Virus record (IMG/VR): IMGVR_UViG_2713896899_000008
Direction: 5' to 3' (one strand)
Length of the DNA: 6,453 nucleotides
Source of the DNA: a virus
Taxonomy: Duplodnaviria > Heunggongvirae > Uroviricota > Caudoviricetes
Below are positions 1-5,703 of this stretch, in pieces (position 1 is the stretch's first letter; each line of letters opens with the position of its first letter). Both the position numbers and the translations under genes were made by a program. Under the pieces are notes generated by a model. That model made no database searches, was not told the DNA's origin, and was given only the letters and a program-made list of their open reading frames with translations.

Positions 1-291
1 ATAGAAGTTCTGGCGAAAGAGCTGGTAGTTAGTGGCACGCTATATGGTTCAGGCCATGGAATATTTCCTTCAGAACAGGCTCGTAAGGACTGGATAAAAG
101 CCTGCAAAAAAATGTCGAGAGCGGCAGTGAAAAAGAAGAACGACCCCGACCTGGTTTATTCGTTGCCAGATAGCGAGATACGCCGTTACAACAGGAGACA
201 GAACATAATTTGCCGAGAGTGCCGTCAGAGCGAAACTATGCAGCGCGTGCTGGCTTTCTGGAAGGGAAGTTTGCAGGAGGTGGTACTGTGA
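1..291 (+). CDS. Hypothetical protein, C-terminal fragment (start lies upstream of window)
   Basis: Frame 1 is open from base 1 to TGA at 289-291 (96 codons, ...CRECRQSETMQRVLAFWKGSLQEVVL). Contains one CxxC pair. Same orientation as downstream phage genes. Family not recognised. Confidence 0.45.
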   Translation: MEVLAKELVVSGTLYGSGHGIFPSEQARKDWIKACKKMSRAAVKKKNDPDLVYSLPDSEIRRYNRRQNIICRECRQSETMQRVLAFWKGSLQEVVL

Positions 292-1282: not shown

Positions 1283-1404
1283 GGTATTAAAAAACGCTCC
1301 GCACACATAAGTTGGGCGCCTGAGATGCGGGGATAGGGAGTTGGTTAAATAGTTATACAACAATACCTGATTTTGCATTGAAGCAAGGAGGAGGTTGCCA
1401 CATA

Positions 1405-1533
1405 TTGAATCATGCACGTGTACGTCAAATGTGGGAGGTCATCGTGCTGGTTCTGAAATGTGCGCTGGCTATTGCGGCTGTAATGGCAATTTATTGTCTT
1501 GTTATTGTTCTTATGGAGCACCTTTCTGATTGA
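1405..1533 (+). CDS. Candidate small single-pass membrane peptide (42 aa from TTG 1405; 34 aa from ATG 1429)
   Basis: Strong SD AAGGAGGAGG (1385-1394), then in-frame TTG 1405 and ATG 1429, stop TGA 1531-1533. Product (MNHARVRQ)MWEVIVLVLKCALAIAAVMAIYCLVIVLMEHLSD has a basic N-terminus and one hydrophobic helix. T is regular at codon position 2. An overlapping frame is also open, so coding status is unproven. Confidence 0.3.
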   Translation: MNHARVRQMWEVIVLVLKCALAIAAVMAIYCLVIVLMEHLSD

Positions 1534-1557
1534 TTTCATATTGGCGAGGTGACGGGA

Positions 1558-1587
1558 GTTAAGTAGAATTGCTGTGGGTGCTTGAGG
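1558..1587 (+). promoter_or_regulatory. hok mRNA 5' element complementary to the 3' end (tac-like)
   Basis: GTTAAGT (1558-1564) and GGGTGCTTGAGG (1576-1587) are antiparallel-complementary to ACTTAAC (1965-1971) and CCTCAACGCACCC (1950-1962, one bulged C), which sit just 5' of the hok terminator. Confidence 0.4.
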
Positions 1588-1744
1588 CTATCTGTCTCAG
1601 GCATGAACACCAACGGCAGATAGAGAAAAGCCCCAGTTAACATTACGCGTCCTGCAGGACGCTTAACATTAATCTGAGGCCAATTTCATGCTAGACACAT
1701 GTAGGTTAGCCTCTTACGTGCCGAAAGGCAAGGAGAAGCAGGCT

Positions 1745-1900
1745 ATGAAGCAGCAAAAGGCGATGTTAATCGCCCTGATCGTCATCTGTTTAACCGTCAT
1801 AGTGACGGCACTGGTAACGAGGAAAGACCTCTGCGAGGTACGAATCCGAACCGACCAGACGGAGGTCGCTGTCTTCACAGCTTATGAACCTGAGGAGTAA
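1745..1900 (+). CDS. hok: Hok/Gef-family type I toxin (51 aa), HokD/RelF-like
   Basis: Product MKQQKAMLIALIVICLTVIVTALVTRKDLCEVRIRTDQTEVAVFTAYEPEE matches the Hok family hallmark (N-terminal TM helix, conserved Cys, C-terminal periplasmic tail) and is near-identical to E. coli HokD as I recall it. SD AAGGAG (1730-1735) at 9-nt spacing. Confidence 0.9.
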   Translation: MKQQKAMLIALIVICLTVIVTALVTRKDLCEVRIRTDQTEVAVFTAYEPEE

Positions 1901-1949: not shown

Positions 1950-1971
1950 CCTCAACGCACCCGCACTTAAC
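1950..1971 (+). promoter_or_regulatory. hok mRNA 3' fold-back element (fbi-like), partner of 1558-1587
   Basis: See the 1558-1587 feature. Position immediately upstream of the terminator hairpin matches the hok-family mRNA architecture. Confidence 0.4.
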
Positions 1972-1995
1972 CCGCTCCGGCGGGTTTTGTTTTTT
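1971..1995 (+). terminator. Rho-independent terminator of the hok transcript
   Basis: Stem CCCGC (1971-1975) / GCGGG (1980-1984) with loop TCCG, followed by TTTTGTTTTTT (1985-1995). A 9-bp GAAA-loop hairpin lies upstream at 1908-1929. Confidence 0.75.
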
Positions 1996-2067
1996 CCTGG
2001 CATTCTGGTTTACAATTCGCACGCCAGCCTGAACAACTGGCACCTGCTGCGCCAGCAGAGACAGCCG

Positions 2068-4467: not shown

Positions 4468-4521
4468 TCATGCAAATCTGATATTTTGCCGATTTTGTAC
4501 GTGATGGCAAAAGCAAACAAA

Positions 4522-4547
4522 ACCCGCCCACAAGCGGGTTTTTTTTG
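4522..4547 (+). terminator. tR'-like intrinsic terminator
   Basis: Stem ACCCGC (4522-4527) / GCGGGT (4534-4539), loop CCACAA, followed by an 8-T run ending at 4546. Confidence 0.75.
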
Positions 4548-4666: not shown

Positions 4667-4742
4667 GGCCCTTTAGCTCAGTGGTGAGAGCGAGCGACTC
4701 ATAATCGCCAGGTCGCTGGTTCAAATCCAGCAAGGGCCACCA
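4667..4742 (+). tRNA. tRNA with CAU anticodon, ileX/ileZ-like (tRNA-Ile2, lysidine type; Met not excluded by anticodon alone)
   Basis: 76 nt cloverleaf: acceptor GGCCCTT/AAGGGCC, D-stem GCTC/GAGC, anticodon loop CTCATAA, T-loop TTCAAAT, A73, encoded CCA. Overall sequence resembles E. coli ileX. Confidence 0.88.
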
Positions 4743-4743
4743 A

Positions 4744-4820
4744 CCGCCACTAGCTCATCAGGAAAGAGCGTCAACCCTTTAAGTTGAGTGTGCGAGGTTC
4801 GAGTCCCCGGTGGCGGTCCA
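4744..4820 (+). tRNA. Atypical tRNA, anticodon loop CCTTTAA (nominal anticodon UUU, Lys)
   Basis: 77 nt cloverleaf: acceptor CCGCCAC/GTGGCGG (C1:G72), D-stem GCTC/GAGC, anticodon stem TCAAC/GTTGA, T-arm CGAGG-TTCGAGT-CCCCG, U73, encoded CCA. C at position 33 and U73 are unusual for a Lys tRNA. Confidence 0.6.
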
Positions 4821-4822
4821 GT

Positions 4823-4898
<76 letters not shown>

Positions 4899-4901
4899 TA
4901 T

Positions 4902-4976
<75 letters not shown>

Positions 4977-5139: not shown

Positions 5140-5703
5140 TTAGTTTTTATTCGCCGTCCATTTACCACAAATTGGTCTGGAGAAGATTGCCAGAATGGCA
5201 ATAAAGGATATTTCAATTGAAACAGACCAGCATATATGTCCAATCAGTTCGCTCCAGAATTCATAGCCGTTTAGATTCCATAGCCACCCTCTTTCATGGC
5301 CGGGAAGATACGCGGGAAATCTGAAGCCCAGCGCGGGTATTAAAATACCATGCATGACTAATGTAATAAGAATTCCATATACAGCCCCATACCACATGCG
5401 GACTCGTGGAATAAAAACAGACAGGTATATGTATACAAAGGCAAAAATGAAACTAAAAAGCCAATGATAGAGCATAACAGCTCCGGGAATTGTTACTCCC
5501 TGGTAAATGTAATCCAGCGAGTGTGAATTTATTCCCAGAAAACCCAACCAGGCGTCGATATTCATTGCTGGTGGAGAAATTTCTCCGGCCATTCTTGGGG
5601 GCATGTTAGCTTCAGTTCCTGATTTCACCAGAGAGCTGATCGCGCCACCGACCAGTGTTGCCCAAAGTATGATTTTTAGATTTACGCTATTCCATTTACA
5701 CAT
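5140..5703 (-). CDS. DUF1440/YagU-family inner membrane protein (187 aa)
   Basis: Minus-strand ATG at 5703-5701 is preceded by GAGG at 6-nt spacing; stop is TAA (complement of 5140-5142). Product shares blocks with E. coli YagU as recalled (VKSGTEANMPPR, MWYG, MHGILIPALG, SELIGHICWSVSIEI). The 280-aa ORF-track version is rejected as an N-terminal extension. Confidence 0.62.
   Translation of the reverse strand: MCKWNSVNLKIILWATLVGGAISSLVKSGTEANMPPRMAGEISPPAMNIDAWLGFLGINSHSLDYIYQGVTIPGAVMLYHWLFSFIFAFVYIYLSVFIPRVRMWYGAVYGILITLVMHGILIPALGFRFPAYLPGHERGWLWNLNGYEFWSELIGHICWSVSIEISFIAILAIFSRPICGKWTANKN

Follow-up and report, generated by a model that had tools for sequence, protein, structure and literature searches.

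A conserved 29-codon candidate membrane-peptide gene beside hok in Escherichia lambdoid prophages and on Shigella pINV

IMG/VR virus record IMGVR_UViG_2713896899_000008 (Duplodnaviria; Heunggongvirae; Uroviricota; Caudoviricetes) is the source of the 6,453-nt stretch of DNA analysed here, which we call the window and which corresponds to the early-right (nin-like) part of a lambdoid prophage. The question raised by this stretch is whether the interval just upstream of the toxin gene hok encodes a small membrane peptide and, if it does, from which start codon. A preliminary description of the locus had proposed such a peptide on the strength of a strong Shine-Dalgarno (SD)-like run, AAGGAGGAGG, with two in-frame start codons behind it. 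An unannotated gene for a small hydrophobic peptide was indeed recovered in this interval and in the proposed frame, as judged by conservation of the frame and an excess of synonymous change, and the locus does lie directly upstream of the 5′-end of the hok mRNA, as marked by the RF01794 match and the hok promoter (Table 1). The description had located a real gene for partly wrong reasons. In our reading the window very probably carries a genuine, translated gene for a 29-residue membrane peptide that begins at GTG 1444. Comparison of its alleles showed purifying selection at the protein level on the frame from this GTG to the TGA at 1533, on the GGAGG and on the start codon, in Escherichia lambdoid prophages and on the Shigella pINV.

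The window was aligned with phage Tritos, a DH5alpha assembly (4.83 Mb), UTI89, phage HannyBb, Shigella pWR100 and 120 IMG/VR contigs. Further copies were gathered from IMG/VR by means of a hok-promoter anchor, ATATTGGCGAG-N12-15-GTAGAAT, which lies outside the open reading frame (ORF) and was chosen to avoid selecting for the ORF. The ORF was intact in 73 of the 129 anchored copies, which represented 29 distinct 90-nt alleles and 20 proteins without a single stop codon. The preliminary description had made the peptide depend on conservation of its frame in homologous prophage regions, and all 29 alleles kept that frame intact. Codons 2–29 held 40 distinct variants, of which 19 were synonymous, 21 non-synonymous and none a stop, where 11.6 ± 2.4 synonymous variants were expected (P = 0.002) under a null in which every variant was moved to a random site with the same base. 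Applied to the other five frames, the test gave P = 0.049 for the antisense mirror and P ≥ 0.8 for the remaining four, the highest value (0.997) belonging to a Cys-rich frame. The mean ratio of non-synonymous to synonymous polymorphism (pN/pS) was 0.34 in the 29-aa frame versus 0.47–0.86 in the other five. Replacements were conservative (A/T/V, V/I/L, M/V/I/T, D/E/N and R/H), and three independent insertions or deletions all preserved the frame (−3 nt in loci L061, L063 and L073, +3 nt in L181 and +6 nt in L182). The ratio of non-synonymous to synonymous substitution rates (dN/dS) was 0.09–0.43 for pairs with dS above 0.5; it was 0.19 between the window and pWR100, 0.16 between the phi80-type allele and pWR100, 0.33 between the window and L181, and 0.09 between two haplotypes that lack hok.

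These figures bear most directly on the reading in which no peptide is made, the block being kept for its DNA or RNA (for example, as a hok-promoter upstream element or as another regulatory site) and the frame being left open by T/G-rich composition. Several frames are open at the locus, including the Cys-rich one on the + strand and a 64-aa one on the − strand; where the rest of the ORF has been lost, its final ~25 nt still accompany the hok promoter; and there is neither expression evidence nor a RefSeq call. Against this, the strong synonymous excess was confined to the 29-aa frame (P = 0.002–0.003), every one of the three length changes was in frame, the start codon and SD were invariant amid varying bases, the ORF was conserved in loci without a downstream hok promoter, and no RNA structure signal was seen. 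We regard a block without a peptide as highly improbable.

The overlapping Cys-rich frame pointed out in the preliminary description is open as described (TTG 1395 to 1529, 44 aa). The accompanying caution was that T/G-rich composition may create ORFs by chance; this frame had no synonymous excess, and the 29-aa frame had one. As a gene, the Cys-rich frame was rejected, for it is open in many haplotypes but showed 5 synonymous against 33 non-synonymous variants (P = 0.997). The 64-aa minus-strand ORF was likewise open in many haplotypes and was rejected, having no synonymous excess and acquiring stops.

The start of the gene differs from the one first proposed. AAGGAGGAGG is present at the position given for it, and its assignment as a ribosome-binding site was not borne out: it falls between the two hexamers of a conserved promoter-like element, within the 17-nt spacer and upstream of the transcription start that this element would give, and is specific to one lineage. 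Within the window's own lineage and its close relatives it degenerates to AAGGAAGAGG or AAGAAATAGG, and in four other lineages its place is taken by the unrelated sequences CACTGACGAG, CAGTTGAGAT, TAACGAGCAC and CCGGGAAGGG. The motif AAGGAGG occurs once in the window, where 0.69 occurrences were expected, and at least once in 106 of 200 shuffles, which is chance level. TTG 1405 and ATG 1429 are in frame with the TGA at 1531–1533, and their products would have the stated 42 and 34 aa; as starts they failed, being unconserved even among close relatives, which have an out-of-frame ATATGG. In other lineages TTG 1405 is TTT and ATG 1429 is ATA. Products of 51 aa (from TTG 1378), 42 aa and 34 aa were all rejected, since their starts are unconserved and database proteins have only the 29-aa core in common, with N-terminal extensions that vary arbitrarily across annotators. 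GGAG, by comparison, was invariant 5–6 nt upstream of the start in 46 of 46 haplotypes and was kept in L181 and L182. The start codon occupied the fixed position 1444, as GTG in most lineages and as ATG in two (pWR100 and L061), and both it and the SD were kept while neighbouring bases varied. The strongest-looking SD of a region can therefore be an accident of lineage; the real gene here has a plainer site and a GTG start.

The conserved layout runs from TTGAAG through a 17-nt spacer to CATATT, and then through a leader of ~30 nt and GGAGG to GTG 1444 and its 29 codons (coordinates in Table 1). The −35-like hexamer was always 17 nt from CATATT despite unrelated spacer sequences in five lineages, and ATATT was kept even in haplotypes with unrelated DNA further upstream. 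Because the hexamers and the 17-nt spacing are kept over five unrelated spacers, we propose, with somewhat less assurance than for the peptide gene itself, that the small gene probably has its own weak promoter, TTGAAG-17-CATATT. In the leader, the motif GT(G/A)TACGTC was kept while the surrounding bases differed; it could be an operator or a site acting at the RNA level. A LexA-type box was sought in the leader by eye and rejected, as the spacing does not fit.

Comparison with the neighbouring hok locus revealed a close and frequent association. In most copies, including the most divergent members (L061, L181 and L182), the stop codon of the ORF lies 8 nt from the hok −35, and the A/T-rich region upstream of the hok promoter overlaps the final codons of the small ORF. 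The small ORF usually adjoins hok/sok, and each also occurs without the other. In 44 anchored copies, which retain only a six-codon remnant of the 3′-end of the small ORF, homology with hok loci began inside those final codons, and ten more copies were truncated elsewhere, some of them mid-ORF. Wherever the contig of a truncated copy extended far enough, hok was intact (51 aa; 36 copies, 27 of the last-six-codon class and nine others). The 933W/Sakai-type hokW loci lack the small ORF, and sequence is shared with them only from the hok −10 onward.

Loss of hok was found as well. On pWR100 (L006; NZ_CP037924.1, 90866–91030; locus 1958–2135) the ORF is intact, begins with ATG and has 76% amino acid identity; the hok promoter and ~55 nt of the hok leader remain and the hok gene is gone. 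At least 13 prophage copies (L192, 5144–5811, and 12 similar IMG/VR loci) keep the ORF and the promoter-like element and have hok/sok replaced just past the hok −35. The upstream neighbours also vary, and include genes for a dATP pyrophosphohydrolase, DUF977, NACHT, HigBA, ORF6N and an AAA ATPase. Junctions were located upstream of the promoter-like element, between that element and the SD (in E. coli B), and either near the stop codon or immediately beyond the hok −35. As these junctions fall at the borders of the mini-gene, the unit moves as a gene. By this comparison the locus behaves as an autonomous module and not as a regulatory element of hok, and its link to hok is positional and frequent, not obligatory. 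A leader peptide or regulatory upstream ORF for hok was rejected on the grounds that hok has its own conserved promoter past the ORF stop, that no structure signal was found and that the peptide sequence is conserved.

The same loci allow a second reading to be weighed, in which the product is a partner of Hok: a membrane-level modulator (an inhibitor or immunity factor, or an enhancer), or else a cis effect in which transcription through the hok promoter alters the hok mRNA isoform. The 8-nt distance from stop codon to hok −35, held in most copies down to L061, L181 and L182, fits such a partnership, and so does the lack of a terminator between the ORF and the hok promoter; the terminator scan gave none that was convincing between 1533 and 1576. 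The HokW homologue of Sp5 has been reported to aid phage release (PMC8621323), so that a membrane co-factor would make sense. Hok is nevertheless intact in the 36 copies with a truncated small ORF, the 933W/Sakai-type hokW loci do without the ORF, the ORF is under purifying selection where hok is gone, and the two products share no sequence similarity. The adjacency could also be explained by common ancestry of one cassette. We consider a Hok partner improbable, and give the same low standing to the specific proposals that the helix gates, inhibits or potentiates Hok pores, or that the promoter yields a translated, 5′-extended hok mRNA which alters the timing of Hok. If a partnership of this kind were true, it would add a third layer, of protein or of transcriptional read-through, to the hok/mok/sok paradigm in about one third of E. 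coli genomes.

Several of the rearranged loci showed further features. The commonest truncated class (L009, 2106–2817, with 43 similar IMG/VR loci, and L130 of E. albertii) has upstream a 228-aa gene, QueH/DUF208-like by eye, which ends ...AAGGAGTGA and is separated by 4 nt from the remnant ATGGATCACCTTTCTGATTGA; this junction happens to have produced a strong SD and a 6-codon mini-ORF at the hok promoter. In the L192-type loci, the DNA that takes the place of hok includes an oppositely oriented gene of 120 aa, DUF1971/YeaR-like by eye, together with a hairpin that might act as a terminator in both directions. The E. coli B copy (L129, 1204–1613; NZ_CP014269.1) has an annotated DUF977 coding sequence that runs 40 nt into the small ORF, lacks the promoter-like element and has TTGGAG, not TTGGCG, as the hok −35. 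The pWR100 relic lies ~290 nt upstream of icsP/sopA, and tblastn detected alleles of its 29-aa class on ~140 plasmid records from Shigella and E. coli. Differential RNA sequencing (dRNA-seq) of M90T placed icsP starts at 90709 and 90726, and the start of a same-strand 'novel transcript' at 91318 (PMC7132871).

The 29-residue product is predicted to form a single transmembrane helix. The preliminary description had expected one hydrophobic helix and a basic N-terminus; the helix was supported by AlphaFold2, which gave one continuous helix (residues 2–33; predicted local distance difference test score 94.8), and the basic N-terminus was not, as the 29-aa product has there a single lysine, Lys5. 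Residues 6–24 are all hydrophobic and the net charge is about −1. The conserved signature is (A/G)(I/V)YCL-x2-3-(V/T)L(M/W)(D/E)(R/H)LSD. A search of 5.8 billion proteins returned 23 clusters, and all those that were named came from E. coli or E. albertii and were labelled 'hypothetical' or 'membrane protein'. A profile search of 1.84 billion representative proteins gave 16 hits; those with an identifiable source all belonged to Escherichia, and several had no name or source. It brought in a small number of divergent members, among them MLAALKGFVAILAVVAIYCLVVVLMDRLSD and MLIIKGVLAIVIVVAIYCLVVTLWERLSD. Back-translated patterns of the most divergent member, P0040, matched nothing in viral or metagenome contigs. 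Pfam gave no hit even at E ≤ 10 and no HOK_GEF match, and the Pfam/NCBIfam scores were sub-threshold noise only (ATP synthase c, 13–17 bits with a cutoff of 116; CoxIIa, 11 bits). No profile match was found to small-toxin and small-protein families (Ldr, TisB, Ibs, Fst, GhoT and others), PHROGs and PADLOC gave no hits, a PDB profile search found no relatives, and BLASTP produced no alignment between the peptide and the adjacent Hok. The family is thus uncharacterised and effectively unannotated; its kind, a small hydrophobic peptide gene of a prophage, is a familiar one.

A peptide of this size next to hok raises the possibility of a second type I-like membrane toxin beside Hok, one that would depolarise the inner membrane and be curbed by an antisense or trans-acting RNA or by very weak expression. 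Small type I toxins have been described as peptides of fewer than 60 aa with a single transmembrane helix and short termini (PMC12648545), and in size and architecture the peptide fits TisB, ZorO, DinQ and ShoB. Its length of 29 aa is similar to that of TisB (29 aa), ZorO (29 aa), DinQ (27 aa), ShoB (26 aa) and IbsC (19 aa), and it shares with these five one predicted helix, very short termini, a place on or next to mobile DNA and neglect by standard annotation. Mobile elements carry its gene, with a bona fide type I system as neighbour. Unlike those of the five toxins, however, the gene has no detectable antisense RNA, long structured leader or mRNA-processing signals, and the helix is uniformly hydrophobic and not amphipathic, with a charge of about −1 and not a positive one. 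No hidden Markov model matched it, including the toxin models of Pfam and NCBIfam. The consensus scan gave no minus-strand promoter or terminator at the locus (absence in such scans being weak evidence), no Rfam family lay over 1378–1533, and the RNA fold of 1413–1580 was no better than shuffles (z = +0.73), nor was that of the minus strand (z = −0.47). The mRNAs of type I toxins usually have long structured leaders. The leader predicted here, ~30 nt if the start derived from the promoter geometry is right, is short by that measure. The finding of the ORF and the promoter-like element intact where every neighbour has been swapped is hard to square with an unguarded toxin. A type I-like toxin is in our view unlikely, if rather less so than a Hok partner.

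Hok/Gef proteins themselves offer a further comparison (hokW-sokW in Sp5 of O157 Sakai; PMC8621323). The small gene occupies the same prophage slot as an adjoining neighbour, and its product resembles them as a single-helix inner-membrane peptide (as predicted here) with an N-terminal lysine and a conserved cysteine in or near the helix. It differs from them in having 29 aa versus 51, no periplasmic domain, no HOK_GEF match and no BLASTP alignment, and its gene has neither a mok-like overlapping frame nor fbi or tac elements. The characterised Sp5/933W hokW-sokW locus lacks the small ORF, and the hokW-sokW paper makes no mention of an upstream ORF (PMC8621323). A second comparison is with MgtS, MgrB, AcrZ, KdpF, PmrR and MgtR, small regulatory proteins of the enterobacterial inner membrane (reviewed in PMC12648545), which it resembles in its ~30 aa, single helix and small-xxx-small motifs suited to binding a larger protein; it differs from these in lacking homology to them and in being encoded by prophages and plasmids, not by the core genome.

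A third comparison is with phage morons. These are autonomous accessory genes with their own promoter that lie between conserved lambdoid genes, bor and lom of lambda being examples. The small gene is similarly compact, has a conserved promoter-like element, variable flanks and junctions at its borders, and is dispensable; unlike morons it has no terminator of its own in the window, and it is far smaller than those described. As to function, we tentatively put first a moron-type prophage accessory gene whose membrane effector acts independently of Hok, while holding this proposal with a little less than even confidence. The order in which we rank the readings is an independent accessory effector, a type I-style toxin, a Hok partner and no peptide.

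As an accessory effector gene of this kind, 1378–1533 would be an autonomous mini-gene for a 29-residue peptide of the inner membrane, transcribed from its own weak sigma-70 promoter with a start near 1413. Read-through of the prophage early-right operon after induction would also cover the gene; the two have the same orientation, so expression would be expected after induction too. As there is no terminator before 1969, the transcript would probably run through the hok promoter to the hok terminator and give a 5′-extended hok mRNA. The peptide would insert as one transmembrane helix, with Lys5 in the cytoplasm and the acidic tail (E/D-H/R-L-S-D) in the periplasm. A7, A11 and A15, small residues at i, i+4 and i+8, might form a helix-packing face together with the conserved Tyr17-Cys18, and the peptide could work by associating with itself or with another membrane protein. 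Such an effector might disturb the membrane or modulate a membrane protein of the host. Provided that it is translated, this would be a widespread prophage-borne membrane peptide with possible effects on membrane physiology, on phage lysis or exclusion, or on the activity of Hok. Annotation systematically misses small membrane proteins, and this gene adjoins one of the most studied toxin-antitoxin loci. A clone of the 'hok promoter region' of a hokW-type locus may unwittingly include or cut it.

Several points weigh against a translated, independently expressed gene. Direct evidence of transcription or translation was not found. Three haplotypes, L181 and E. coli B either lack the promoter-like element or have it in altered form, the −10 being absent in L181 and E. 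coli B; its agreement with the sigma-70 consensus extends to only 8 of 12 positions, and the consensus scan did not list it. In the M90T dRNA-seq data, no start coincides with the promoter predicted for the pWR100 copy (PMC7132871, Table S3), and the nearest same-strand start is 321 nt upstream of the predicted pWR100 site (PMC7132871). All of the selection statistics rest on few sites, as the ORF has 84 informative bases, and a larger set of 37 alleles (no stops, 25 synonymous and 23 non-synonymous variants, P < 5 × 10⁻⁵) is biased towards synonymous change because it was partly gathered by a protein-level pattern. About 40% of the copies anchored by the hok promoter have been truncated by recombination, and the gene is therefore dispensable. 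None of the RefSeq rows listed had a feature over the ORF, which the RefSeq pipeline almost never annotates; the exception was a single WP_ entry for a 30-aa variant, and Prokka called the exact 29-aa ORF on pWR100. Topology, oligomerisation and a role independent of Hok are things that we infer. No paper containing the peptide sequence was found; a ribosome-profiling preprint on CFT073 that mentions hok was beyond reach, so earlier detection is possible.

Of 5426 complete E. coli genomes, 2625 had a match to the 186-nt block from 1360 to 1545, and in 1818 the match spanned at least 80% of it; on these figures, roughly one third of such genomes or more carry the gene. The block was also found in four sequenced phages and on 143 plasmid records, mostly pINV-sized plasmids of Shigella and E. 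coli (enteroinvasive E. coli-like), of which pWR100 was the one inspected. Further carriers were the large DH5alpha assembly, UTI89, E. coli B, E. albertii and E. ruysiae; we suspect that the DH5alpha copy may have come by way of a phi80 prophage. A scan of species-representative genomes with the hok-promoter anchor gave true hits only in E. albertii, E. ruysiae and a few metagenome-assembled contigs, and the rest were mostly chance matches. The block was absent from K-12 MG1655. The best match of the window to a complete E. coli genome was 95% over 1250–1620, and no complete genome was identical to the window.

Table 1. Positions of the small-peptide locus and of neighbouring features in the 6,453-nt window.
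Feature	Position	Strand	Basis or remark
−35-like hexamer TTGAAG, putative sigma-70 promoter	1378–1383	+	TTGAA(G/T) in most of 46 upstream haplotypes
AAGGAGGAGG, lineage-specific run within the promoter spacer	1385–1394	+	Alignment of lineages and shuffles
−10-like hexamer CATATT	1401–1406	+	ATATT in 46/46 upstream haplotypes, also in L182
Predicted transcription start	1412–1414	+	Promoter geometry only, 6–8 nt past the −10; leader ~30 nt
Leader motif GTGTACGTC	1418–1426	+	GT(G/A)TACGTC nearly invariant across lineages
Shine-Dalgarno GGAGG	1434–1438	+	5 nt upstream of GTG 1444; matches the pattern GGAGG-N4-8-DTG
29-codon ORF, GTG start, TGA stop, encoding MLVLKCALAIAAVMAIYCLVIVLMEHLSD	1444–1533	+	Allele comparison; predicted single transmembrane helix
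hok promoter TTGGCG-17-TAGAAT	1541–1569	+	Promoter consensus scan; neighbour, outside the small gene
hok mRNA leader including the Sok target region	1576–1750	+	Rfam RF01794, 115 bits, E = 1.6e-26
mok (70 aa), with hok nested in the same frame (ATG 1745, 51 aa)	1688–1900	+	Pfam HOK_GEF, E = 2.8e-21, 75 bits
hok terminator, first intrinsic terminator 3′ of the small ORF	1969–1996	+	Terminator scan
DUF977 gene, 3′-end	1–290	+	First of the + strand series; three small ORFs follow, then the small-peptide locus
DUF968 protein, RusA, antiterminator Q and four tRNA genes	After mok/hok, in that order	+	

The gene equivalent to hok of the window is named 'HokD' in RefSeq. The RF01794 match, although the model is that of the 'sok antitoxin', is on the + strand, which is the orientation of the hok mRNA leader and opposite to the strand from which Sok would be transcribed. 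Sub-threshold Rfam matches to the Salmonella prophage small RNAs isrK/isrJ were found at 1909–1990 and 4471–4544 (23–28 bits, with gathering scores of 37–50); these sites correspond to the hok terminator region and to the sequence just past Q, where the leader RNA of the late promoter would be expected. The tRNA genes (4667–4976), directly after Q, are Met-CAT, Lys-TTT, Thr-TGT and Gly-TCC, in a position matching that of the tRNA cluster of Shiga toxin (Stx) phages, with a different anticodon set. Downstream of Q and the tRNA genes, a gene for a 280-aa DUF1440 membrane protein lies on the minus strand (5140–5982), at the position where related phages carry cargo such as stx. In the cluster of small ORFs upstream of the peptide locus, the ORF at 859–1056 (65–72 aa) has paired CxxC motifs and zinc-hook/TRASH-like Pfam matches below threshold, and probably encodes a small nin-region protein of the zinc-ribbon type.

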